Positions 6,452-33,540 of a stretch of DNA of 64,000 nt are shown one piece after another. Source of the DNA: a virus; IMG/VR virus record IMGVR_UViG_3300035681_000021, positions 2,412 to 66,411 of that record. The stretch is one strand, 5' to 3'. The translations under genes and the position numbers were made by a program. Every line of letters starts with the position of its first letter. Position 1 is the stretch's first letter. The notes under the pieces were generated by a model, which saw only the letters and a program-made list of their open reading frames with translations, was not told where the DNA came from and searched no databases.

Positions 6452-9400
6452 ATGCCAATTTACAGCGTACAAGGCCCGGACGGACGGATTTACGATGTGG
6501 AGGGGCCTGCTGGCGCTTCTGAACAAGACATTATTGCTGCTGTAAGACGGCAGTTAACTCCGCAACAGCCTAAAAAACCACAAGAAACTACGTTCGGTGG
6601 GCAAACCAAGGAATTCTTTAAAGGTCTTGTCCCCGGCGCTATTGGGCTTGTTGAACAAGCCGGTACTGGTATATCAGCACTGCTGCCAGAAGAACAAGAA
6701 AAAGCCACACAACAATACATTAAAGAAGTTGCGGCTACAGCCAAGGCTCCGTTTGCCGCTGCGCCGGGGTATGAAGACACGGTGGGGCGCAAGTTTGGTG
6801 AAGCCACAGGTTCTATCGCGCCGTTCCTTGCCACTGGGCCGTTTGGTCTGGCAGGGCGTGTAGCCGGATACGGCCTTGGTATTGGCGCTGGTGCTGGCAC
6901 ACAGGTAGAGAAGTCTGCCGCTGAAGGGGCTACAGAAGGACAACAAACTGCCTCCACTGCACTTGGTGCTGTGGTAGGCGCATCAGAGATGTTTGCCCCC
7001 ACACGTATTCTGAAACGTCTTGGGGAGCCTGTGCTTGAGGGTGCCACGTCGTATGTAAAACGTGCGTTGATGGCTGGCGGTGAGGAAGCCGCACAAGAAG
7101 CCGCAGCACAAGCCGCACAGAACATTATCAGCAAAGGTATATACAAACCTGAGCAACAAATCATTGAGCAGGTTGGTGAGTCTGCCGCCTACGGCGGTGC
7201 AGTCGGCGCGTTAGCGCAAGGGTTGTTGGACTTAGCTATTGGTCGTCGTGCGCCTACAACCCCGCTTACAGACGAGGTAAAACAAGCCCGTGAAGAAGCG
7301 GCTGCGCAGGCAGAACAAGAAAAGATACGGCTGAACAGCCCTGAGTACGCCCAAGAAGTATTCCAGAAGACGCAGGAATTGGAAGCGCAGCGCACGGCGC
7401 TCAAACAGCAATTAATTCCAATAAGGAAAGGCGAATCCCCAGAAACGGATTACGCACACAACCGTGAAATCAACCGCCAGATCGAGGCCATAAACAAAGA
7501 ACTCAAGCCATTGGCTGAGGAGTATGTGCGTGTCAAGCCTATTCTGAAACGTGCTGAGGAAGAAGCACGAGTTGCCAAGCTAACTCCGTATGAGTATGCG
7601 TTGGGCATGGAGCCTGAGGAGATTGGGCAGGCACCTGCTGAGCCTGAGCTGTATGAACAGCAGATTGCCGCGCCGCCTGCGGCACCGAAGGCGGGAGATG
7701 CTGCGGCGCGATATGCCGCTGAGAGCATCCAATTGGCCAACGAACAACAGCTTTCTAGTGAAAAATCCCCCAAAGATGCGGAGGCCGACTACGTTAAATA
7801 TTTGATGCGTAACCCCAACTTGGCTGAAGAAATTGAAAAAGGTAGATTGCAATTACCCGGCCTACCTACTGGTGTGCGTAACTCTGCCGTGTTGGACGCG
7901 TTGAAGTTGCAGCTTGCGCCCATGCGCAAGGAGAAGGCAACCGCAGAAAGAACTGCCTTTGAACAAGAGATGGGCACACGCAAAACAGCGTTTGGTGTTA
8001 CCAAACCAGAGAAAGAAACTCCAGAGATACAGGCGTTCACTTCGTACATGGACGACCTCAAGAGCCAGCGTGATGACGTTGGTGATGACATGTTCTTCAA
8101 GTACATGGTCGAGCCAAAGCTGGAGAAAATTAGTGAGGGTAAACCCCCAGTCATAGCGGTCAATCCACAGTTGATGCCGTTTGCCAACATCAAACTGGCA
8201 GAACGCTCACGGGAAAAAATAAACAGTCTGTTTGATGAAATAGATCAGGCTAATAAGGATAGAGATGTCGCACTGCGCTCAAATAACCAAGACGCTGCAA
8301 CAGCGGCGTTTGAAAGAGGCAACCAAGCGTTAGAACAGCTCAACGCTTTTACAGAACCCACGCCTGCTGGAGAACTGACAAAAGGAAGGTTCCCAAGCGC
8401 CAAGGTAAGCCCACAAGCCAGCGTCTACGCCAAAGAAGTGCTACGGGTGCGCAATGAACAGAACACGGCTTTAAACACAATTGAAGACAAGATTGACCGT
8501 TTGCGTCGCGGTGAAACGTTGGGTAAAAATGAGATGGCGGCTACTTCGCCAGCCATACTGGCTAAACAAGCTGAGGAAGCTCGGGGCAAGTACATCTCTG
8601 CGGTGTTGGAAGAAGCCGCCATCCACCGTCGTGTTGCTGGTAAACCCGCACTGACTTACGACGAAGCCATCAAGGCCTCGTCGCGCATTCATGATGTGGT
8701 GGGTGAATGGTTGAATCGCGCACAGGCAACGCCTGTAGCGCCTGAGTTTGAAGAAGTTGTGGTGCAACCAGCGCAGATGCGGGCAAACAAACTTGTCCGT
8801 GGCGCTGTTACCAAACGTGTTTTGAAGACCCGTGATCTGGCCACAACGCCATTGAATGAAATTGCACGCTTGAGTGATAAAGAAATCAAGCACTTCAAAG
8901 CGCAGATTGCCAAAGTTGTTGACAGCTTATCCCAACTGCCATCGCAGGTTTCACGTGAAACACCAGTACTGAAACAGCAGTTTGCCAGCACTGAAGCACA
9001 GAAAGTTGCTGAAGCCAAAGGTGAAACCGCCAAGACACTTGGTGGAGAACTACGCCGTCGCACAGAATTTGTGCGGAACTTGATGGCTAAGCCGCCTCTC
9101 AAGCCGTTGACAGAAGAAACTCGCAAAACGTTAAACCTGAAGTTGCTTGACCGCGCCGTTGACATCATGGACAGCGGCAAAGCCTCACGCGGTTTGTTGG
9201 ATGCTGTTGAACCTATTGTCACAAACTTGGCTGAAGGCCGTGAGGTTCTTTCGCAAGATATCCAAGCCCTTGATGATGCCATAAAGCTGTATGAACGTAC
9301 AGCCCAAGAAGGTGAGATTGCTGGTGAAGGCGCAGCAGGTCAAGGCCAGTTGTTCCCTGAGACCCGCAAAGACATTGGTTATATCCGTGCCACTCCCGCC

Positions 9401-12400
9401 AACTTTGCCAAATCCCCACAGATCAAGCCTGTGTGGGAAGCGCTGGATCAAGCACGCAAGCTCAAGGCAAAAACAGAAGCCAACCAGAAAGCGCGTTCTG
9501 TCAGAGACAAACAAGGCTTTGCGCAAGTTGAAGCAATAGAAGAACAACTTGAAGCCATTAAAAACCAAATGCAGTTTTTCCTGCTCAAGCCGGGAGACTT
9601 CAATATTGGCAAGTACTCGAATGCAGACATTGCAAAAATGTTTGCGTCATACCCAGAAGCAGGCGTTACAAAAGAAGACAAGCTGCTGATGGATCGGTAT
9701 TTGCAAGTGTCTAGACAAAGTATTGGTAAGACTGCTGAGCAAAAAGAACAAGCCATGTCCGTGTTTACTGAGGAAGAAAAACAAAAAGTAAACAGGTTAA
9801 TCCAAGACTTCAACGCAAGCAAAATTCCTGAGTACGAAAAGAACGTTAAGCAGGCGCTGCAAGCACTTTCATTGGGGCAACGCCTTGAAAGCACAAACAA
9901 TCGCTTAGTTGAGTTAATGCAAGACAACAATGCGGCTGTGCGTAAACAATCAGAAGCAGCCCGCAAAATTGTTGAGCCACTACTGGACAAGTTAAAGCTT
10001 ATCAAAGACAGTTTGCGTAACTCTGTTCTGTTGACTGATGGCCAACGCGCAATGCTTGATTCCGAAATTGCATTGCAAGCACAACGTGGCGCATACAAAG
10101 ACGCTATGGCCAAGGCGATGGGCAAAGCCCGTCAACGCCTGTCTGATACGTTGGGTGAATTGCTTGATCCTGAGATCGAACGCGCACGTCGTGCTTTGAA
10201 AGCTGCTAAGACACGTCTGGCCACAGTTGAGTCGCAGATTGAAGCGGCCAAGAAAGAAATGACTGAGGGTACTGGCCAAGCGCCAAACCTGATTAACAAC
10301 TTGCAGAAAGTGCAAGGGCTTGTTGAGAACATTGAAAAAGCGGAAACAGAACTGGCCGACTTGCAAGAAGCCCGTTTTGGTGAGATTGAGAACGATGTTG
10401 TTGTCACCGAAGCCATGTTGGACAAAGACCTCAAATCAGAACGCGAGTATTTAGAACTGCTTGAGCGTCAGTTGGCAGACATGCGCAAGGAATCTTTGAC
10501 CGCTGTTGAACTTGGTGGTCGTGGCGAACTGGGTAAGTTGAAGTACCCGTTCTCTGCACAACGTTTAGAAACGCAAGTAAAAACACAGCAAGCTGCGGTT
10601 GATGAAGCACAGAAACGTGCGAACGAATTCCAAAAAGATGTGGAAGTCTGGTGGCCTAAGGTTACTGCTGCGTTCAAGAAGGACGGCATTAGCATCAAAG
10701 ACTTGCCCGGTGCAGTGTTTAAGAAAGGCCGCAAAGTTGCGGACATCAGCACGCCGGAACAAAAGCGCCTTGATGATTTGCGTGACAAAGGTGTGCAAGC
10801 CGCAAAAGAAGTTGACGAAGCCGCAGTACTTCAGCGGGTCAAAGACAAACAAATTGAAATGTTTGATGATGAAATCTTTGACGCACGCGGTGAAGTGCAA
10901 TCGTTCATGGGGCCAGAAAACATGGAGCAGTTGGCCGACATCATGGCCGACCCCAAAACCACCAACGTCAAACGCGTACAGGCAACCCTCAAGCTGGGCG
11001 CTATGCAGAAGCTGGCTTCGTTGGAAGCACAGAAAGAAGTTTTTCTTACAGGCAAACCTGCACCAACACCCAAGGCAGCTACTGTGCCGAGCACTTCTGC
11101 GTTGGCGGCAGCTAAACCATTCCGTACTGGGTCAGGCGTAGCGAAAGCGTTTACTCCAGCAGAAATGGATGAGATGGCTCGTGCTGATATACGCGATGCC
11201 AACGAGCTGGCCAAAAAGATTCTGGGCACCAAAGCACCCCAGCTGAAAGAGCCAAGCAAACGCAAGCAAGGCAAGCTGCTTGACCCCAACATGGGGTTGT
11301 TTGACGACTTTGAATTTTCTCGTGGCACACCAGTTAAAGGTTTGACCAAGGCTGAGCTTGAAGCCGAACTTACCGCCGGTATGGGAGAGCCAGTTACTGG
11401 GCGCAATGTAGAAAAACAAATCGCTGACAAGTTGGCGGTGTATGAAGACCTTGATGATTACCTGAGCAAATTTAAACCTGCTTCTCGTGATTGGTATAAA
11501 GGGCAGATACCTAAAGACGCTAAAGGCTTTGTGCAAGATGGTAAAGCGGTACTGTTTGCCAACAACATTGGTAAAGGCCACGGACTGGGCGTACTGCTCC
11601 ACGAAGTCGGCGTGCATTTGGGATTTCGCAACTTCTTTAACGAAGGCCAGTACAACGCGTTGGTTAAGACAGTCAAAAACTGGGCGACCAAAACTGACGA
11701 TTCAATGGAAGCGCGTGTTGGTAAAGCCGCCATGCGCAGGGTTGAAGCTGCGCAAACACCTGAAAATCAGATTGACGACGAGTTGTTGGCGTACGCTGTT
11801 GAAGAAGCCATGCAGATGGGTGTAGAACCTGTTGGCGTTAAAGGCGGCAACGCAGTTAAGAATTGGTTGAAGATGGTGGTGGACGGGTTCAAGAAAGCGC
11901 TTGAGAAGTTTGGCATCAGCGCCAAGAACTTGACTGCGGGCGACTTGGTTAACTTTGCCTACGGCGCAGCGCACCTTGAACTTAAAGGAACTTGGCACGG
12001 CACAGGTGTTAAGTTTGATATGTTTGACCACACCTATATGAGTTCTGGTGAAGGCGCTCAAGCATTTGGCTATGGTACATATCGTGCACAAAGATACGGC
12101 ACCGCTGACTACTATCGCGATGTTGCACAAGGTTCGCAGCTTAAAAAATGGTTGGAGCGGCCTGATGTGCAAGCGTGGAGAGCTAGTCAAAGGCCAGAAC
12201 TAATACGTAAAGCGCCCGACGTTGTTCCTGACTGGATGCTTGAAAACGCAATAGAAGAAGCGGCAAACCCGTATGCAGGCATTTCTCCACACATGATGTT
12301 TACGGATTCTATTGAACGCCAAATAAAAGAGTTGAAAGATTTGCGCAGCGACCCCAACATGCAGGATGTTGGTTTTGGTATTCAAACAGACAAAGAGTTT

Positions 12401-15400
12401 AAAGAAACGATTGATAAACTCAAAGAATTTGCAAAAAATGCAGACGGGTACATAGATGCGCCCTTTGAAAAACCTCTGTATAAAGGTAAACAATTCTATA
12501 ACTTGTACGACACAAACCCCGCAGCGCACGCTGTTTTGAGAGACTTTGAAGTGGCGTTGGGTAAGGGCGAAAAACCTTCTTTTAAAGAAATAATTGCAGA
12601 AATAAAAGTGGATGCCGCAAACACAATGAAAGTGTTTGAAATGGCTACAACCAGTCCAGATGAAAATTTTGTTTATAAGCGTAACAAACAAATATATGAA
12701 GATGCAGACAAGCTTAACCTTGATGACTTTAAGTATCGCTTAGTATCTGGCCCACCTGTGCCACAGCCTTCTGGCTACATGTTGCGCACGCTTCATACGC
12801 GTCCAGAGAATGAGTACATCCACTGGGATGACGCTGCGGATAGTCAACCACCAGTTGTGAAAGATGTGTTCAAGCGCATCTATGATTCTTTAGATAAAAC
12901 TCAGCAACAAAACTTTGATCGTTCGATTGGCACATCGCCAACTGATCGCCAAAACGGACAGCAGTTGTATGAAGCACTGAGCGCCGTTCTTGAAAAAGGC
13001 GGTATGCCCAGCGAGTTGTCTGACCGGTTTGCGTCCGAGATGCTTCACGCTGAAGGTATTGCGGGCATTAAGTTTTTTGACAACCGTTCCAGAACCAAAA
13101 AAGAAGGCACGTTTAACTACGTTGACTTTGGCGACAAAGATGAAGGTGCGCAGATCATTGCCACTGACATCAACCCAATCAATCGTACAAACCCTCCGGC
13201 GGGAGATATGCTGTTCTCGCGTTCAGAAGAGTTCACAAATCCTGAACTTGCCAAACAGGGTGAATTTATTAAGAAAATTGTGGCTACAGACAAAACGTTG
13301 TGGCAAAAAATAAAAGCCAACTTAACAGGTTTGGCTTTTGAGACACAGCTTGTGGATAGGTTTGCAGGCTTTGAGCGTTTGGCCAAATACATGGATGAGG
13401 TCAAGGGAACGCAGATGCTGTATTACTTGCGCATGTACGACCAGCGCATGAACTTTGTGTCCCAAGCAGTATCCAACGGCGCACCGGCAATCGTGGAAAA
13501 GACAAGAGCTGACGGCAAGATTGAGCGCTTGCTTGAGAGCAAAGAGAGCGCCAACATACACAACGTTGTGCAAATTCTGAAAGATGCGCAGCCTATGGTT
13601 GGCAATGCGGAAGCGGTAAACCGTGTGTTTACTTTGTACATGGCGGCTATCCGTGCAGACAACAAAGGTTTGGCTTCGTTGAACTTTGGTGAAGACGTTA
13701 CACAAGCGTTGCTTGATAAAACTATGGCCGCCGTCAAAAACACCCCCGGCTTAGAAAAAGTTTTGAAGCAAGCAAAAGACGAGTACAACGAGTACAACCG
13801 CAACTTAATTGAGTTTGTTGTCAGCACTGGCGCACTGTCAAAAGAAGTTGGTAAACGTTTGGTTAGAGAAAACGACTACATACCCTTCTATCGTGAACGC
13901 AACGGCGTAGCCGAACTTTTAATTGGTGGCGAGTCTCCTATCCGCATTGGTAGTATTGCCGAACAGCCATATCTGCATGAGCTTGTTGGCGGCGACAGGC
14001 CGATTCTTGACTTCATGACAAGCTCGGTGCAAAACACCAACTTGTTGATGGACATGGGTATGCGCAATCTGGCTACCAAGAACGCTGTGTTTGAGTTGGT
14101 TGATCTCAAAGCTGCTAAGTTTGTGAAGATGTCTGCTGGCCCTGACGTTGTTAAATTCCGCGATGATGGTGAAGATCGTTACGCTGTTATTGCTACCGAA
14201 AAGGTCAAGATTGGCAACAAGGAGTTTGATACCGGCGTACCCGCCGACATACTGGTCAAAGGCATGGAGGGCATCCCCACACAGATGCCAGCAATGTTGC
14301 GCGTCATGGCTTTCCCAGCACAGATATTGCGCAAAGCTATTACCCTCAGCCCTTTGTACACAGCCAAACAATTGTTCCGTGACTCCTTGGCCGCGCCTAT
14401 TCTTTCTGGCGCAGACTTTATGCCTGTCATTGGTGCGTTGAAAGAAATTAACTCCGCTACCAAAAAGACACTTGAGCGCCGCGGTGTTACCGGAGGCCAG
14501 CAGTTTGTTGGTGGCGCTGAAGACTTGACCAAGATTCTGCGTGATGTGTCTGAAGGTAAGCCGGGCTGGATGACAGCACTTGGCAAGCTTGAAGCCATGA
14601 GCATGGAGGCAGATGCCACAACCCGCCGTGCGCAGTACAACAGCTACCTTGAGCAAGGTCTGTCTGAGATGGAGGCAACGTTGTTGGCGCTGGAGTCCAT
14701 GAACTTTAACAAGCGCGGCGCGTCACCCTCAATCCATGTGGCCAACTCCCTGATACCTTTCTTCAACGCACAGATTCAAGGTCTGAACGTGTTGTACAAA
14801 GCGTCTATGGGTAAGATGCCATTCAACGATCAGTTGCGTATTCGTGAAAAAATGATGCAGCGTGGTGCCATGATGGCTGTTGCCAGCCTCGCCTACGTCG
14901 CCATAATGGAGGACGACGAAGCGTACAAGAACGCAACGCCCGATCAGAAATACGGCAACTGGTTTATCCGTGTGCCGGGTTTAGACGAACCCATCAAACT
15001 GCCTGTGCCTTTTGAAATTGGCTACATCTTCAAAGCGTTGCCCGAGGCGTTGTACAACAGCATGGTCAGTGAGCACGGTGGTGAGGAAGCAGTCAAAGCT
15101 TTCAAACAAATCCTTCTCCAGACAATTCCCGGTGGCTCGTCTTACGGCATCCCACAGATCATGAAACCCGCCATCGAGGCAGGGCTTGGCAAGTCGTTCT
15201 ACACAGGTCGGGACATCTTGTCTGCGCGGGAGAAAGAGCTGTTGCCCGAAGAACAGTTCCGCGCCAACACATCCGAGCTGGCCAAAGGTATCGGTAAAGC
15301 ATTTGGCATATCCCCAATTGTGTTTGAACAACTTGTCAGCGGCTACACCGGCACTATGGGGCTTGCGTTCATGCACGCACTGAGTGTGGCCGCGCCTACG

Positions 15401-15808
15401 GATGAGAGTCCTGAGAAAGCCGTTAAACGTTTGTCGGAGTACCCAATTCTTGGCGGTGCGTTCCAACCAAACGACGCTGGTGGCATCATCAACAGCGTGT
15501 ATGAGCGCATGAATGAAAACATCAAAGTCAAGCAGTCGTTCGACAAGATGGTTGAAGAAGGACGCATGTCGGAAGCCAAGGCGTTGTTGCAAAGACGAGG
15601 TAACGAGTACTTGCAGGCGGAAATGGCGTACAGCTTTAAGAGCGACATGAACAAACTCACTCAGGCTGAACGGGCGATTGCGGCATCAAACATGTCACCT
15701 GAAGCCAAGCGTGAGCAGCTTGATAAAATCAGGAAGATAAAGATCGCCGTTGCTCAAACGGTGAGAGAGGTTTCCGATAAAACCATACGCCTAGCAACCC
15801 CTTTCTGA
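6452..15808 (+). CDS. Large polyvalent virion protein (zincin-like metallopeptidase, ADP-ribosyltransferase-like domain, LPD38-like C-terminus)
   Basis: 3118-aa ORF; LLHEVGVH...DELLAYAVE; WHGT...GEGAQAFGYGTY...GIKFFD...NYVDF; C-terminal IPFFNAQIQG...LPVPFEIG...IEAGLGKSFYTGRDI. Confidence 0.75.
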   Translation: MPIYSVQGPDGRIYDVEGPAGASEQDIIAAVRRQLTPQQPKKPQETTFGGQTKEFFKGLVPGAIGLVEQAGTGISALLPEEQEKATQQYIKEVAATAKAPFAAAPGYEDTVGRKFGEATGSIAPFLATGPFGLAGRVAGYGLGIGAGAGTQVEKSAAEGATEGQQTASTALGAVVGASEMFAPTRILKRLGEPVLEGATSYVKRALMAGGEEAAQEAAAQAAQNIISKGIYKPEQQIIEQVGESAAYGGAVGALAQGLLDLAIGRRAPTTPLTDEVKQAREEAAAQAEQEKIRLNSPEYAQEVFQKTQELEAQRTALKQQLIPIRKGESPETDYAHNREINRQIEAINKELKPLAEEYVRVKPILKRAEEEARVAKLTPYEYALGMEPEEIGQAPAEPELYEQQIAAPPAAPKAGDAAARYAAESIQLANEQQLSSEKSPKDAEADYVKYLMRNPNLAEEIEKGRLQLPGLPTGVRNSAVLDALKLQLAPMRKEKATAERTAFEQEMGTRKTAFGVTKPEKETPEIQAFTSYMDDLKSQRDDVGDDMFFKYMVEPKLEKISEGKPPVIAVNPQLMPFANIKLAERSREKINSLFDEIDQANKDRDVALRSNNQDAATAAFERGNQALEQLNAFTEPTPAGELTKGRFPSAKVSPQASVYAKEVLRVRNEQNTALNTIEDKIDRLRRGETLGKNEMAATSPAILAKQAEEARGKYISAVLEEAAIHRRVAGKPALTYDEAIKASSRIHDVVGEWLNRAQATPVAPEFEEVVVQPAQMRANKLVRGAVTKRVLKTRDLATTPLNEIARLSDKEIKHFKAQIAKVVDSLSQLPSQVSRETPVLKQQFASTEAQKVAEAKGETAKTLGGELRRRTEFVRNLMAKPPLKPLTEETRKTLNLKLLDRAVDIMDSGKASRGLLDAVEPIVTNLAEGREVLSQDIQALDDAIKLYERTAQEGEIAGEGAAGQGQLFPETRKDIGYIRATPANFAKSPQIKPVWEALDQARKLKAKTEANQKARSVRDKQGFAQVEAIEEQLEAIKNQMQFFLLKPGDFNIGKYSNADIAKMFASYPEAGVTKEDKLLMDRYLQVSRQSIGKTAEQKEQAMSVFTEEEKQKVNRLIQDFNASKIPEYEKNVKQALQALSLGQRLESTNNRLVELMQDNNAAVRKQSEAARKIVEPLLDKLKLIKDSLRNSVLLTDGQRAMLDSEIALQAQRGAYKDAMAKAMGKARQRLSDTLGELLDPEIERARRALKAAKTRLATVESQIEAAKKEMTEGTGQAPNLINNLQKVQGLVENIEKAETELADLQEARFGEIENDVVVTEAMLDKDLKSEREYLELLERQLADMRKESLTAVELGGRGELGKLKYPFSAQRLETQVKTQQAAVDEAQKRANEFQKDVEVWWPKVTAAFKKDGISIKDLPGAVFKKGRKVADISTPEQKRLDDLRDKGVQAAKEVDEAAVLQRVKDKQIEMFDDEIFDARGEVQSFMGPENMEQLADIMADPKTTNVKRVQATLKLGAMQKLASLEAQKEVFLTGKPAPTPKAATVPSTSALAAAKPFRTGSGVAKAFTPAEMDEMARADIRDANELAKKILGTKAPQLKEPSKRKQGKLLDPNMGLFDDFEFSRGTPVKGLTKAELEAELTAGMGEPVTGRNVEKQIADKLAVYEDLDDYLSKFKPASRDWYKGQIPKDAKGFVQDGKAVLFANNIGKGHGLGVLLHEVGVHLGFRNFFNEGQYNALVKTVKNWATKTDDSMEARVGKAAMRRVEAAQTPENQIDDELLAYAVEEAMQMGVEPVGVKGGNAVKNWLKMVVDGFKKALEKFGISAKNLTAGDLVNFAYGAAHLELKGTWHGTGVKFDMFDHTYMSSGEGAQAFGYGTYRAQRYGTADYYRDVAQGSQLKKWLERPDVQAWRASQRPELIRKAPDVVPDWMLENAIEEAANPYAGISPHMMFTDSIERQIKELKDLRSDPNMQDVGFGIQTDKEFKETIDKLKEFAKNADGYIDAPFEKPLYKGKQFYNLYDTNPAAHAVLRDFEVALGKGEKPSFKEIIAEIKVDAANTMKVFEMATTSPDENFVYKRNKQIYEDADKLNLDDFKYRLVSGPPVPQPSGYMLRTLHTRPENEYIHWDDAADSQPPVVKDVFKRIYDSLDKTQQQNFDRSIGTSPTDRQNGQQLYEALSAVLEKGGMPSELSDRFASEMLHAEGIAGIKFFDNRSRTKKEGTFNYVDFGDKDEGAQIIATDINPINRTNPPAGDMLFSRSEEFTNPELAKQGEFIKKIVATDKTLWQKIKANLTGLAFETQLVDRFAGFERLAKYMDEVKGTQMLYYLRMYDQRMNFVSQAVSNGAPAIVEKTRADGKIERLLESKESANIHNVVQILKDAQPMVGNAEAVNRVFTLYMAAIRADNKGLASLNFGEDVTQALLDKTMAAVKNTPGLEKVLKQAKDEYNEYNRNLIEFVVSTGALSKEVGKRLVRENDYIPFYRERNGVAELLIGGESPIRIGSIAEQPYLHELVGGDRPILDFMTSSVQNTNLLMDMGMRNLATKNAVFELVDLKAAKFVKMSAGPDVVKFRDDGEDRYAVIATEKVKIGNKEFDTGVPADILVKGMEGIPTQMPAMLRVMAFPAQILRKAITLSPLYTAKQLFRDSLAAPILSGADFMPVIGALKEINSATKKTLERRGVTGGQQFVGGAEDLTKILRDVSEGKPGWMTALGKLEAMSMEADATTRRAQYNSYLEQGLSEMEATLLALESMNFNKRGASPSIHVANSLIPFFNAQIQGLNVLYKASMGKMPFNDQLRIREKMMQRGAMMAVASLAYVAIMEDDEAYKNATPDQKYGNWFIRVPGLDEPIKLPVPFEIGYIFKALPEALYNSMVSEHGGEEAVKAFKQILLQTIPGGSSYGIPQIMKPAIEAGLGKSFYTGRDILSAREKELLPEEQFRANTSELAKGIGKAFGISPIVFEQLVSGYTGTMGLAFMHALSVAAPTDESPEKAVKRLSEYPILGGAFQPNDAGGIINSVYERMNENIKVKQSFDKMVEEGRMSEAKALLQRRGNEYLQAEMAYSFKSDMNKLTQAERAIAASNMSPEAKREQLDKIRKIKIAVAQTVREVSDKTIRLATPF

Positions 15809-20304: not shown

Positions 20305-20754
20305 TTACTTGGTTGGTTTGCGAACAGAGATTGCGTACTCAGTCAATGAGTTCAATCCGGGTGGTACGAGGCCGGGGTTATCTTCAAGGAATGTTGCCAT
20401 ATTGGTCTGCGCAATACGCTTCTCCAACAAATCAACGGCTTCGTGTTGAAGCACGAATGTCTTGAATGAATCCCAGTCTTGTGTGTTGTAGCGTGTCTTT
20501 GTGGACAACACTACAGTGCCTTGGTCAGTGCGCACAGAGGACACGCCCAGTGCAAGCATCTGATCTTTGAGGGCAATCTTCACGGTGTCTTGCTGCCGTT
20601 TGATTTCCTCAACTTCGTTTTCGTACGCTTGAGTCAGCTCTTGAATTCGAGCCGCCATCTTACGGTACACCTTTGCCAACTTGTCCATTGGGACAGTGGC
20701 CAATTCATTGCTCTCCTCTTGCGGGGGAGCGTCATCATCGACTGTTGCAGTCAT
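20305..20754 (-). CDS. Conserved phage replication-module protein
   Basis: Coiled coil then SVRTDQGTV...DWDSF...PPGL; strong RBS. Confidence 0.6.
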   Translation of the reverse strand: MTATVDDDAPPQEESNELATVPMDKLAKVYRKMAARIQELTQAYENEVEEIKRQQDTVKIALKDQMLALGVSSVRTDQGTVVLSTKTRYNTQDWDSFKTFVLQHEAVDLLEKRIAQTNMATFLEDNPGLVPPGLNSLTEYAISVRKPTK

Positions 20755-24671: not shown

Positions 24672-26639
24672 TCATGATTTTGCTAACCCGTACCTACGGT
24701 GCGCACCACCGTCAGCGGCCAAGGGTATCCCCGGCATGTAACTCGGTTCCATAGTCATCTGCGCCAAGACCCAAGTCTTAGCGTCAGCAACTTCTTCATC
24801 CGGCACAACAGCGATCAACTCGTCGTGCACCGTTCCAGCGATGGGGTACTTCTTCGATACCCTCAACATGCCATCCGTCATCACGATTCTGGCAAGCGCT
24901 TGCGTCACATTGTTCGTTATCTTACCTGCATACAGCTTCGTTGCACGCTCTCCGTACACCCACTGCGGTTTGCCGTTATCACCCTGTTCAAGGCGAAGAT
25001 TGGGGTACAGAAGTTTCATTCCGTTTGGTAATTCTATCTCGCCTTTGCGGAATGTCAAACACTTGTGCTTGTGCTCTTTACCCAGATACAAACATCTGGT
25101 TATAAGCTCGCTGAACAACCCCCACATGGACACAATCGGCCAAGCAGTACGGCGATAGGTGTCGATGATTGCCTTGGCGGCGAGGGCGTGGGTCAAGAGT
25201 TCTTTGTCAGAACAAGTGTGGGGGATGTCGAACAGCTTGGTATCGTTGCCGTCCCAGCTGGCAAACTCCTGTGCGTACTCAGAGTTAACCCCTAACGCCT
25301 TGGCGAAGTCTTTGGAGTACCTGACAGGCGGCGCACCAAGGAACCCCACAAGAAGCTGGGACGCGAACGATGCCCAACCGAGACCATACCCGCAACCCAA
25401 GAGCGCACTCTTCGCAGACTGCCGGAGGTCGGGATGCGAGTCCTTAGTAAGTCCGGGTATGTTAAACATCTGCGCTCCGAACGCCGCGTAAGGGTCACCA
25501 CCTGACCTGAAGATGTCAAGCATCTCATAGTAATCCGAAAGCCACGCGAGTACTCGCGGTTCAATTTGTGAGAGGTCACCGACGACCAGACTGTACCCTT
25601 CGGGAGCCATAATCGCTTTGCGTAAGAAACTTCCACGCTTGAGGTTTTGCATGTTGATTGCTGAACCTTTTGCTGCCGTCCACCTGCCCGAGAGAGCACC
25701 GTAATACGAGAGCGGAACCGGTAGTTTGCCGCGCTGGCTAATGTCAAGGAAGCGTTGTGCACGTGTGCGCTCGGTTGTGGATTTAACTTTAAGGCGTGCC
25801 TCACAAAGGAGGGCAACGTCTTCACGTTCACCGTTGAGCAACGCTTGGAAGAGGGCATCATTCTTTGCAAAAGCGTACGTCGTTTTGCCGGTAGTTTTAC
25901 TGACCTTAGTCGGGGGAGTAACCCCGAGGCTTTCAAGTACGTTTGCAAACTTCGGGTTCGACGCAAGCTCAACTTCTTGTATGCCGAGTTTTTGTAGTAG
26001 TCCTTCACGCAGTTCTCCTTCTTCTGTCAGTGCTTTGATAAGCATCTTGCTGTCAAGCTCAAGCTGTGGTCGTGTGTACATCTTGAGCGTCATGTCGATC
26101 AGACGCAATTCGGATTTGGGATAACCGGCTGAGAGTCGTTTGAAGATTTCCTCGCACAGGTACACATCATGGGCACAGTACTCGGCGAGTTCTCGTTCAA
26201 TGGTAACGTCCAGTTCAAGTAGTCCGTTGGTGCTGTGTACAGCTGTTCCTTTAGCAGGGAGTCCAAAAGCTTCTGCAAGTTTGGCGAGGGAATTACCAAC
26301 CTCCACGCCGCGTAAAGCTCGCGCCATTGATAGTGTGTCGAAGATGAATGCTGGTCTGGCGTTATATATCCACTCCATAATGGATACATCGAACTGTGCG
26401 TTGTGCGCAAGCACTGCGGTTCGTCCCCAGTTGATTCCAGAAAAGTATTCACGTAGTCCATCTCCTCCAACCCATTCAATTGGACTATCGGCTCCGAACT
26501 CATGTACGCATACTCCAAATGCTTGAAACCTTTTGTCACGGATGTACTCCTCTGTTGTCATTTTTGATAATGTGTACTCTTTGCTGTCCCACCGAGTTTC
26601 AAAGTCGATGGTCAGGATGCGGTCAAATGGTTTTGTCAA
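24672..26639 (-). CDS. Family A DNA polymerase with 3'-5' exonuclease
   Basis: DFET, HNAQFD, YCAHD exonuclease motifs; DLSQIE (A), RQSAKSALLGCGYG (B), VHDE (C); TTG start. Confidence 0.93.
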   Translation of the reverse strand: MTKPFDRILTIDFETRWDSKEYTLSKMTTEEYIRDKRFQAFGVCVHEFGADSPIEWVGGDGLREYFSGINWGRTAVLAHNAQFDVSIMEWIYNARPAFIFDTLSMARALRGVEVGNSLAKLAEAFGLPAKGTAVHSTNGLLELDVTIERELAEYCAHDVYLCEEIFKRLSAGYPKSELRLIDMTLKMYTRPQLELDSKMLIKALTEEGELREGLLQKLGIQEVELASNPKFANVLESLGVTPPTKVSKTTGKTTYAFAKNDALFQALLNGEREDVALLCEARLKVKSTTERTRAQRFLDISQRGKLPVPLSYYGALSGRWTAAKGSAINMQNLKRGSFLRKAIMAPEGYSLVVGDLSQIEPRVLAWLSDYYEMLDIFRSGGDPYAAFGAQMFNIPGLTKDSHPDLRQSAKSALLGCGYGLGWASFASQLLVGFLGAPPVRYSKDFAKALGVNSEYAQEFASWDGNDTKLFDIPHTCSDKELLTHALAAKAIIDTYRRTAWPIVSMWGLFSELITRCLYLGKEHKHKCLTFRKGEIELPNGMKLLYPNLRLEQGDNGKPQWVYGERATKLYAGKITNNVTQALARIVMTDGMLRVSKKYPIAGTVHDELIAVVPDEEVADAKTWVLAQMTMEPSYMPGIPLAADGGAHRRYGLAKS

Positions 26640-26905
26640 TTAAATGCCTCCTTTGGGGGAGCGTCCATAATGTTTAAGAATCCGAAAAAACTGTTGACCT
26701 CCAGCAGCATCTCTGCGGCTTCCATTTCGTCACAGTTCATCGTGGTGAGGGATGTTATCTCGCCCTCTTTTTTAACCATCAGCACAGCTTGGTTTGGGTT
26801 GGGGCCGTAGCATGTGACCAGCGCCAGCACAGACATCTTGAAGTGCAGCTTCTCGTCATCATCCATCAGCGTCAAACGTTTTTCTAATGCGTCTTCGTCT
26901 TTCAT
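26636..26905 (-). CDS. Hypothetical protein
   Basis: 89 aa, coupled on both sides. Confidence 0.65.
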   Translation of the reverse strand: MKDEDALEKRLTLMDDDEKLHFKMSVLALVTCYGPNPNQAVLMVKKEGEITSLTTMNCDEMEAAEMLLEVNSFFGFLNIMDAPPKEAFN

Positions 26906-27186
26906 GTCAGTACCTTTCTAAGTTCGTTTATGTTGTCTTCGTTCACCACCATTGCTACTCCCCCTGCGCTTCTTATGCGGCGCATATGTTCTTCTTGTAG
27001 TGCGGTTGGTTTATTCTTCCCCGCCTTTGCCTCTACCCCAATGAACACACCATTGGCGCATACAAGAAAGTCTGGCACCCCTGAGTTGCCGTAGCCTGTG
27101 CCGATTGGCATGGCGTAGTACACGCCCAGCTCGTCCAACAGTTTCCTGATTTGTTTTTTAACTTTTACTTCCGGTGTCGATGCCAT
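26902..27186 (-). CDS. VRR-NUC nuclease (Holliday-junction resolvase-like)
   Basis: PEVKVK, GVPDF, GVEAK, PTALQ, AGGVAMVV. Confidence 0.88.
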   Translation of the reverse strand: MASTPEVKVKKQIRKLLDELGVYYAMPIGTGYGNSGVPDFLVCANGVFIGVEAKAGKNKPTALQEEHMRRIRSAGGVAMVVNEDNINELRKVLT

Positions 27187-27201
27187 ACAGTTTCCTTTGA
27201 A

Positions 27202-27356
27202 TTGGTGAGGGGGTCAAGTAGATTCCGCGCCCCCTCGGTTCGCGGTTGGAAAGCTGAACAACAGCGTAGTCCAATGCTAAGCGGCGCTGTTGTTCGTGGT
27301 GCAGTGGTTACATCTACTAGGTTTGCACAGACCACATTAAATACCCCCGCTTAGCT
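27202..27356 (-). ncRNA. Candidate multi-pseudoknot structured RNA
   Basis: Seven complementary segment pairs (5-11 bp) fill the intergenic space; see findings. Confidence 0.6.
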
Positions 27357-27358
27357 GG

Positions 27359-27523
27359 TTACGATTTTTTCTCTGACAATAAACGTTTTTTTCTGCTCTC
27401 TGTGAGCACTTGCTTGAGCCATTTAGTTGCTCCTAGCAACTTCCATTCCTCGTATTGCCACACCGTCAACCGTGTGCCAATGCGTTTTTGTGTTGTTGTC
27501 AATTCAGTCTTGGGTCTTGGCAT
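27359..27523 (-). CDS. Small basic putative DNA-binding protein (54 aa, not in ORF track)
   Basis: MPRPKTELTTTQKRIGTRLTVWQYEEWKLLGATKWLKQVL... Confidence 0.6.
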   Translation of the reverse strand: MPRPKTELTTTQKRIGTRLTVWQYEEWKLLGATKWLKQVLTESRKKRLLSEKKS

Positions 27524-27666
27524 TTGTGGTCATCTCCAGCGGACTTGGTTAAAAATATAAGGTAACAGTTACTGCACCGCCATACAAGACCTTCTTGCAC
27601 GACCGTTCTGCGCTCCCCGTGTTCCCCACGCGATTTACCAAAAAATGTTCTGATTGCTTCAAGCAT
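27499..27666 (-). CDS. Small zinc-finger-like protein
   Basis: WRCSNC...F...H-x-C. Confidence 0.55.
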   Translation of the reverse strand: MLEAIRTFFGKSRGEHGERRTVVQEGLVWRCSNCYLIFLTKSAGDDHKCQDPRLN

Positions 27667-27844
27667 GTCTACTCCAGTCTGTGTATCCAAGAATTTTCAT
27701 CATAGCTGTCTCATGGATTGCGTCCCCCCAATAGCGAACGCCGCCTTCTGTTACAACGAACCGCCATAGCGTCCCATAGTCATCGGTCGTGTACCAAACA
27801 TCTCGCGTCGTGAGTCTGCCGTTGATGTCGTGTACCTCAAGCAC
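27659..27844 (-). CDS. Hypothetical protein
   Basis: 61 aa, GTG start after AAGGAG, packed in operon. Confidence 0.5.
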   Translation of the reverse strand: MLEVHDINGRLTTRDVWYTTDDYGTLWRFVVTEGGVRYWGDAIHETAMMKILGYTDWSRHA

Positions 27845-28046
27845 CTTGTTGCTCCTTCCATCGTTTACACATACGTTTCACAGTATCAGTTTGGTGTCTT
27901 TTGTCTTTTCTCAAACAGATTTCACTTAGCTGTCGTTCTTTTGCTTTTTGCTTCAGCGTTTTTTCCACTGGCGGCGTGGGTTCGGGGAACAAGCCATTCC
28001 ACCCTGTTGCCATAAGCGCCACGCTGAGTATGAGTCGGTCAATCAT
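27837..28046 (-). CDS. Hypothetical protein with hydrophobic N-terminus
   Basis: 69 aa, coupled. Confidence 0.55.
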   Translation of the reverse strand: MIDRLILSVALMATGWNGLFPEPTPPVEKTLKQKAKERQLSEICLRKDKRHQTDTVKRMCKRWKEQQGA

Positions 28047-33463: not shown

Positions 33464-33491
33464 TTGCTTCTCCTGTTTAGTGTTTGTACAA

Positions 33492-33519
33492 TTCTAGCAT
33501 GCCTGTCAAAGGTTTGACA
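33492..33519 (-). promoter_or_regulatory. Leftward extended -10 promoter (TGcTAGAAT) overlapped by a 16-bp palindrome
   Basis: TGTCAAAGGTTTGACA at 33504-33519 inside the longer inverted repeat GCCTGTCAAA/TTTGACAGGC. Confidence 0.55.
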
Positions 33520-33540
33520 GGCTTAGATTGCTAGGGGTTT

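Follow-up and report, generated by a model that had tools for sequence, protein, structure and literature searches.

A conserved RNA of interlocked pseudoknots ahead of the replication genes of uncultured phages, a candidate cis-acting operator

A 64,000-nucleotide (nt) stretch of viral DNA, referred to here as the window (positions 2,412 to 66,411 of the IMG/VR record IMGVR_UViG_3300035681_000021), carries between a small open reading frame (ORF) and the genes of DNA replication an element that forms a conserved RNA fold of six helices on the messenger strand. Covariance models place it at 27202-27358 on the minus strand (157 nt, with the 5-nt tail after the last helix included), and it is their sole match in the window (166.7 bits with model R1, 174.9 bits with model R2) as well as in the complete 66.4-kb genome, which comes from an uncultured virus and has direct terminal repeats. 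Two H-type pseudoknots, A/B and S1/S2, are tied together by a loop-loop helix, K, giving three crossing interactions. The element probably controls or protects the message behind it, and our preferred, though tentative, reading is that of a cis-acting post-transcriptional operator of the replication module, similar to the leader of T4 gene 32.

Read 5' to 3' on the minus strand, the first half of the element runs through the 5' arm of helix A, hairpin C, the 5' arm of helix B, the 3' arm of A, a variable loop, the 3' arm of B and a linker. Helix A pairs 27347-27355 (9 nt in the window, up to 11-13 base pairs (bp) in relatives) with 27276-27284, which lies inside the loop of helix B and so makes A and B an H-type pseudoknot. 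Hairpin C (27296-27335) has an outer stem (27331-35/27296-300) and an inner stem (27326-28/27304-06) closing a 19-nt loop, in which a conserved G-C-C-U is followed by the 5' strand of K (27312-27318) and then by G-Y-G-A-M. The 5' arm of helix B (27285-27295, paired with 27256-27266) abuts both the 3' arm of C and the 3' arm of A with no spacer. In the linker, a pyrimidine-rich motif resembling an anti-Shine-Dalgarno sequence is found at 27248-27252 (UUUCC here, YUCC in most relatives).

The second half continues with the 5' arm of S1, loop 1 (1-7 nt), the 5' arm of S2 joined to the 3' arm of S1, an invariant A, the 3' strand of K, 3 nt, the 3' arm of S2 and the tail. Helix S1 joins 27241-27245 to 27225-29 and measures 5 bp in the rows checked by eye, while helix S2 joins 27230-36 to 27207-27213 (7 bp here, 6 bp in some relatives). 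The S2 5' arm and the S1 3' arm form one continuous strand (27225-27236), without spacer in the window and in most relatives, a geometry suited to coaxial stacking of 7 + 5 bp. The 3' strand of K (27217-27223) sits in loop 3 of this pseudoknot and pairs over 7 bp with the loop of hairpin C. By geometric reasoning K should lie alongside S1 rather than extend it, because only three nt join K to S2. The tail ACCA (27203-27206) comes directly after the last helix. Between the end of the fold and the Shine-Dalgarno sequence there are 8-10 nt, and an unpaired A/U-rich spacer follows the fold.

Support for these helices comes from compensatory changes among relatives. In the alignment of helices A, C and S2 (A4, 85 distinct rows), 91.7% of the cells are paired, compared with 48-57% when the partners are slid by 1-3 columns; both sides change in 24 of the 28 pairs, and none of 500 shuffles reaches the score. 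The corresponding figures for helices C, K, B, S1 and S2 (A5, 88 distinct rows) are 95.4% compared with 40-49%, 30 of 40 pairs and again 0 of 500 shuffles, both sets of values being drawn from alignments fitted to models and judged by a shuffle control that ignores relatedness. Six of the seven pairings listed in a first-pass annotation of this DNA, made from the letters alone, thus show compensatory changes among 85-88 distinct relatives.

Taken one by one, helix A changes on both sides in all 11 of its pairs (89.1% of cells paired, A4), as does helix B (95.3% paired, A5), which also gives the highest mutual-information scores, and hairpin C in all 10 (A5). Helix S1 is paired in 99.5% of the cells with both-side changes in 4 of 5 pairs, and helix K in 98.3% with changes in 2 of 7, the two covarying pairs being AU 51 / UA 24 / GC 6 and UA 79 / CG 7. 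Helix S2 changes on both sides in 3 of 7 pairs in A5, and in 5 of 7, with 97.9% of cells paired, in a separately collected set (A6, 44 distinct rows). Helices K, S2 and A are absent from model R2. Even so, a structure-blind calculation of mutual information placed helix pairs in all of the top 21 ranks, with pairs of helix A coming next (from a model without A), and yielded no extra tertiary pairs beyond the six helices. The sole recurrent break in helix K is a mid-helix U-C mismatch in one clade (L297, L305, L338, L344 and L387; 5 of 86 cells at its pair), which carries UGUAUAU in place of UGUAGAU with the partner strand unchanged.

The relatives were gathered by three routes. Protein searches with the polymerase and the nuclease gave 158 loci on uncultured viral contigs; the full 172 nt of the intergenic gap could be aligned by blastn in 23 of them and its 3' 60 nt in 92 of the 158. 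A sequence pattern placed on the 3' pseudoknot added at least 118 further stretches, and S1, S2 and K occurred together in 184 of 203 matches, among the matches listed for the collected viral loci. Because this pattern fixes the very bases it finds, a second scan was run with a pattern on the loop of hairpin C, returning 91 stretches (67 distinct sequences), 34 of which as distinct sequences lack the first pattern; 4 of the 34 are chance matches, leaving 30. An apparent invariance of S2 and S1 proved to be an ascertainment artefact of the pattern lying on them and is gone in the C-loop set, where S1 shows many more variants. The bias that remains concerns S2, S1 and the 3' strand of K in the first set, and the K strands and the C loop in the second. 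Chance pattern matches were set aside in both cases (L281, L327, L369 and L371 for the first pattern; L402, L426, L429 and L434 for the C-loop pattern).

Covariance models R1 (helices A, C and S2) and R2 (C, B and S1), seeded from 8 close sequences, replaced a MAFFT alignment (A1) that had misplaced the A, B and C arms in distant clades. They aligned 89, 90 and 53 matches, giving the distinct rows of A4, A5 and A6, respectively. A cut-off of E 5e-4 excluded one partial match of R1 and three weak matches on the reverse strand (L086:640-752 (-), L291:3973-4111 (-) and L307:12492-12636 (+); 22.8-24.7 bits, E = 0.003-0.008). These overlap a real element and are taken as echoes of its near-palindromic helices. 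Outside the collected loci, a blastn search of deposited phage records (50,697) with 26600-27900 gave no match. In bacterial genome contigs, among the matches listed for the pattern (at least 120), none had S1, S2 and K together, in a scan where about 280 chance matches are expected and which therefore has no bearing on bacteria or prophages.

The direction of the tolerated mispairs identifies the molecule. Cells with G-U outnumber those with A-C by 198 to 14 in A5 and by 124 to 28 in A4, an asymmetry partly favoured by the model fit, and because of this large excess we assign the fold to RNA on the transcribed strand. The same counts bear on the proposal of an element acting as DNA, whether a replication origin, a set of protein-binding palindromes or an origin with a primer RNA. 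A single copy beside the replication genes would suit such a site. Duplex DNA, however, has no need of crossing pairings that covary, nor of tolerating G-U while rejecting the A-C of the opposite strand (198 against 14), and neither iterons nor an AT-rich stretch were seen (GC 0.54; no tandem-repeat search was made). Nothing was found in support of a primer RNA, one of the four functions that the first-pass annotation had proposed, and overall we consider a DNA-level role extremely improbable.

Within the window itself, the dense pseudoknotting proposed earlier for the transcribed strand is borne out by the covarying crossing helices, and the seven complementary pairs on which it was based are all present, six of them perfect and 27296-303/27324-35 bulged, as described. 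Judged from the window sequence alone, such stems are rare: among 2000 dinucleotide-preserving shuffles, a perfect stem of at least 11 bp occurs in 0.3%, a second stem of at least 9 bp in 0.15% and four stems of at least 7 bp in 5 (0.25%). The nested minimum-free-energy fold is ordinary on either strand (z = -1.4), because nested folding cannot credit crossing helices. Comparison with relatives also corrected the picture. Of 33 distinct arm combinations, that of the window is the only one to form the pairing 27246-50/27270-74, which was dropped; its 5' partner instead lengthens helix A in seven close relatives (seed alignment A2). The bulged pair does correspond to a real hairpin, C, in a different register: the family form is not GUGCA/UGCAC but an inner stem of 3-4 bp closing the 19-nt loop, plus an outer stem of 5-6 bp.

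Conservation is not confined to paired positions. The unpaired G-C-C-U before K and G-Y-G-A-M after it, an A after the S1 5' arm and the A before the K 3' strand are all retained. The U-G-Y-R-A at the end of K may resemble the five-base T-loop motif. Three variants (L324, L372 and L361) lack the A/B pseudoknot and keep hairpin C, K, S1 and S2, and we therefore regard these last four as the core of the structure.

No recognised family accounts for this fold. Rfam 15 at gathering thresholds gave no match in the 64-kb window, in agreement with the earlier impression of an unfamiliar RNA, and at E up to 10 the region 27100-27450 returned only a chance snoRNA match (13.8 bits against a threshold of 46). 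Literature searches on VRR-NUC and riboswitches, phage pseudoknots and structured RNA found no description of the element. A fragment of it may be among the 8,495 unnamed candidate RNAs catalogued in 2023 from this virus collection (PMC10690425), and a preprint (10.64898/2026.09.22.753630) deals with another RNA, one associated with a reverse transcriptase. As a type, a pseudoknotted leader on a phage replication message is known; this architecture and this sequence family are not in Rfam.

The hammerhead, twister and other self-cleaving ribozyme families are in Rfam, and phages are a common home of small ribozymes. The small size of the element, its several pseudoknots, the few near-invariant unpaired nt and the variable peripheral stems would all be in keeping with a new self-cleaving class that punctuates a polycistronic message. 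Against this, none of the known ribozymes (hammerhead, twister, twister-sister, pistol, hatchet, HDV-like and glmS) gave an Rfam match at E up to 10, the strand order is by inspection unlike the nested double pseudoknot of HDV-like ribozymes, and no cleavage site can be inferred. A 214-nt contig from one RNA library, found on comparing four of 12 RNA runs (all as assembled contigs, each with 0.12 or less of the sampled words), also spans 27152-27337 unbroken, a weak argument since contigs show neither transcription nor ends. We hold a ribozyme to be very improbable.

The genomic position of the element is highly regular. All the genes flanking it are on the minus strand. Upstream, a 54-amino-acid (aa) ORF (27359-27523) directly abuts the element, its stop codon (27359-27361) lying just outside the helix A 5' arm; downstream, after a gap between the two genes of 172 nt in all, comes a 94-aa VRR-NUC/Hjc-like nuclease gene (26902-27186; phrog_93 endonuclease, E = 2.8e-16). 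The ribosome-binding site (RBS) of the nuclease (27191-27197) and its start codon (27184-27186) together span 27184-27197 on the minus strand, the former about 5-6 nt after ACCA, close to the 5 nt first estimated. An 89-aa ORF separates the nuclease from a family A DNA polymerase (24672-26639), part of the replication block.

This arrangement recurs in the relatives, in which the element is always in sense orientation and always ahead of a gene start. The upstream stop codon falls -9 to +6 nt from helix A in 71 of 80 instances and inside its 5' arm in 44 of the 80, so that in these a ribosome reaching the stop has to open helix A. Of the 85 instances with a called ORF, 78 have their start codon 16-32 nt past the pseudoknot and 5 have it at 38-61 nt, the ORF filter having mis-called the other 2; 3 of the 88 instances, at contig ends, have no callable ORF. 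The next gene encodes the VRR-NUC nuclease in 59 of 85 cases and otherwise DNA polymerase A, an exonuclease, an inserted HNH endonuclease or a small ORF of unknown function. Since the element stands before whichever gene opens the replication block, it follows a position rather than one gene. In one locus (L352:3937-4416) the inserted HNH gene (phrog_3377, E = 2.3e-38) lies between the element and the next gene, with a gap of 46 nt to the start codon.

Each of five complete genomes has one copy, and other operons of the genome have none. Together with borders that coincide with the neighbours' stop codon and RBS, as those of phage tRNA genes do, and with a conservation and complexity typical of RNAs that work as molecules themselves, the single copy is what one would expect of a stand-alone RNA cut from the transcript, which would bind or decoy a host or phage protein in trans and be merely packed between genes. 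The K pairing could then even be intermolecular, a distinction that covariation cannot make. We consider this quite unlikely, as the element invariably leads the replication genes and occurs at no other site in the genome, and a promoter or terminator of its own was not found. Promoter-like or terminator-like sites flanking the element on the minus strand were likewise not found; the nearest promoter-like site upstream on the same strand, at 33491-33520 (-), lies about 6 kb before it and consists of CTGTCA, 18 nt, TAGAAT and an upstream TG.

Mechanistically, the element would lie inside a long leftward messenger RNA (mRNA) and would fold into one compact body. In its core, the S1/S2 pseudoknot would stack coaxially (5 + 7 bp) and K would lock loop 3 to the loop of hairpin C, while A/B would serve as a variable scaffold joining the parts. 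On this platform, we infer, a trans-acting factor would bind and so set both the ribosome starts on the first replication cistron and the lifetime of the message; the factor would most likely be a phage or host protein and less likely a small ligand. We favour this operator because it agrees with where the element lies, with its conserved core and with the A/U-rich spacer being unpaired. Of the four functions named in the first-pass annotation (ribozyme, riboswitch-like leader, tRNA mimic or primer RNA), the leader fits the position data best.

The closest known parallel is the leader of gene 32 in phages T2 and T4. PMC12710915 describes in that mRNA an H-type pseudoknot with ACCA behind it and mentions the claim that RNase P accepts it as a substrate, and PMC10690425 describes the binding of gp32 to its own leader as autoregulation. 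The two leaders share a coaxial two-stem H-type pseudoknot in a phage message, ACC(A), an unpaired A/U-rich stretch, an RBS and a set of DNA-replication genes, a likeness of architecture. In contrast to gene 32, the pseudoknot here makes up only the 3' third of a 155-nt fold that also includes another pseudoknot and a loop-loop helix; fewer nt separate it from the RBS, and what follows is a gene for a nuclease or a polymerase, or a small ORF.

Several observations weigh against the operator. The next gene was never a recognisable single-strand-binding protein (SSB) in 85 instances, and a PHROGs scan named no SSB among the 29 ORFs of the window. No trans factor was identified. Presence is patchy: the element is found in 24 and absent from 25 of the 49 polymerase loci with enough upstream DNA, and 52 of 61 loci without it keep the nuclease gene, there coupled directly to its upstream neighbour. 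The tight spacing could reflect the compactness of phage genomes and would also fit a stand-alone RNA gene, and the S1/S2 stems, rich in GC, look permanently folded and unlike a switch. Position and patchy presence together therefore describe an optional 155-nt insert within a long message, placed where the replication block begins.

The linker offers a possible expression platform. Its YUCC pairs with the RBS (in the window, UUUCC with GGAAA at 27191-95) at -5.6 kcal/mol, compared with -4.6 +/- 0.24 kcal/mol in shuffled linkers. This complementarity, however, is generic and shows no covariation (-5.60 for true against -5.49 +/- 0.17 for permuted combinations, p = 0.27), and the Shine-Dalgarno sequence takes part in no conserved helix; both results count against the operator. 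The element may equally represent a new riboswitch class. With the SAM-II, preQ1-II/III, ZTP and similar aptamers it shares a compact pseudoknotted core, conserved unpaired nt, variable helices and a place just upstream of an RBS. Unlike these, it gave no Rfam riboswitch match, showed no conserved helix that hides the Shine-Dalgarno sequence or forms a terminator, and has very GC-rich stems; it also lies about 6 kb into the transcript rather than at its start, and its gene set gives no hint of a ligand.

Other routes of control were tried and rejected. Antitermination was discarded with downstream minus-strand terminator-like sites found only at chance level. Recoding of the upstream ORF by frameshift or readthrough was judged by eye: the A-run before the stop lacks conservation, and only 4 codons are open in the -1 frame. 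A search for a co-occurring protein as the trans factor (24 loci with the element, 25 without) gave top matches that track phylogeny or are spurious ORFs.

Viral exoribonuclease-resistant RNAs act as mechanical shields, and a passive role of this sort would dispense with a partner altogether. As a shield or insulator, the fold would stop decay in the 5'-to-3' direction (by RNase J or a scanning RNase E) as well as ribosomes coming from the upstream gene, and would keep the RBS unpaired. Its place inside a polycistronic message, starting at the upstream stop codon, its knotted topology with three crossing interactions and its dispensability in half of the relatives, as for an accessory stabiliser, all point this way; nearly invariant loop nt and a single copy per genome are not obviously needed for it. 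Coremin (xrRNA-C) is the natural comparison, being likewise intercistronic, directly after a stop codon, about 20 nt before the next start and a possible roadblock. In PMC10520033 coremin is described as two hairpins, the first of 4 bp with a YGAD (or YGNNAD) loop, separated by a conserved spacer of 8-10 nt. These defining parts were not seen in the consensus core (by eye; no search with a coremin model was made), and the present element is five times larger, single-copy and equipped with conserved loops of its own. On balance we find a purely passive shield rather unlikely.

The 3' end of the element also calls for comparison with tRNA. The earlier reading had likened the last helix and ACCA to a pseudoknotted acceptor end; the strand order upholds this likeness and the ACCA tetramer does not, making it a weaker cue than claimed. 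Among 88 instances the first tail position is A in 75 and G in 9, the second C in 84, the third C in 72 and U in 14, and the fourth A in 26, U in 45 and C in 15, so that only A-C-Y is kept and the fourth base is free, in a tail internal to the mRNA. The element shares with the tRNA-like structure of the turnip yellow mosaic virus (TYMV) type, and with model pseudoknots of RNase P, the strand order of the acceptor pseudoknot, a discriminator-like purine with CC after the last helix and the 11-12 bp of S1 and S2 together, like an acceptor/T arm. Pseudoknots of this sort are cut by RNase P in vitro (PMC12710915). It differs from the TYMV type in being internal, with an RBS and a gene within 16-32 nt (78/85), in a fourth tail base whose freedom leaves no CCA-OH to aminoacylate, in having no equivalent of the anticodon arm or D arm that we could find, and in belonging to the mRNA of a DNA phage.

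From these features one can derive a phage-built acceptor-end mimic of interlocked pseudoknots that recruits host RNase P, or another factor reading tRNA 3' ends, a proposal we regard as somewhat unlikely. S2 (7 bp) on S1 (5 bp) would form a 12-bp acceptor/T arm with the tail as discriminator and CC. RNase P would cut in loop 1 just 5' of the first S2 G (27236/27237), separating the early from the replication message, and the new message would start with a base-paired, protected 5' end. A precedent is reported in PMC12710915: for bacterial RNase P RNA to cut an H-type pseudoknot in loop 1, an RCC(A) trailer has to follow. The element has the H-type pseudoknot, the single-stranded loop 1 (1-7 nt) and the RCC trailer after stem 2.

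In favour of such cleavage are the order of strands from S1 to the tail, the measure of the stems (S1 5 bp, S2 6-7 bp), the first S2 pair, which is G-C in 81 of 88 instances, and the tail itself, with a purine in 84, C in 84 and C or U at the third position in 72 and 14 of the 88. The 30 sequences collected through the C loop agree (by eye, A in 30, C in 27, then C in 18 or U in 11), and the A-C-Y pattern would fit base-pairing with a G-G-U partner. On the other side, 3 of these 30 have A-A-Y tails, and an internal tail argues against a strict mimic. Rfam, which includes a tRNA model, gave no tRNA match, and ARAGORN found no tRNA or tmRNA gene in the window. In many relatives (e.g. L399, L405 and L427) loop 1 is down to 1-2 nt, leaving little room at the scissile bond. 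The base preceding S2 is C in 68 of 88, which PMC12710915 links to miscleavage. The strongly conserved K helix and C loop are not needed by RNase P, and the RNA-library contig runs unbroken across the proposed site, a weak point given that contigs cannot show ends.

Further observations concern the surroundings of the element. In loci without it (L010, L011, L012, L016, L017, L046, L049 and others), the nuclease gene abuts or runs into the end of a conserved gene upstream. The product of this gene, with a C-terminus of roughly ...HYMMKL.EV, is presumably a DUF3310-type phage protein; the same gene precedes the element in the L098 clade. Elsewhere in the window, a 3118-aa ORF (6452-15808 (+)) matches phrog_18222, of unknown function, over its last ~660 residues only, and a 149-aa ORF in the replication arm (20305-20754 (-)) matches phrog_13900 'minor head protein' (E = 5.1e-23), an odd site for a head protein.

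Few natural RNAs of this size, to our knowledge, combine two H-type pseudoknots with a loop-loop helix, and such an architecture usually has a specific job. Here it stands at the switch point from early to replication genes in a large group of uncultured, presumably freshwater phages; as it is optional among close relatives, it would be a regulatory module of the gain-or-loss kind whose effect should be directly measurable. If the preferred operator reading and its factor binding are true, the element would be a new control point of phage replication. If instead RNase P cuts it, a long-standing in vitro curiosity would become testable in vivo: the element would be the first natural pseudoknot 'punctuation mark' of its kind in a DNA phage and would answer a question that PMC12710915 leaves open, namely whether RNase P acts on mRNA pseudoknots in vivo. 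Whichever reading holds, RNA databases gain a well-supported new family, and the fold makes a good target for structure determination.

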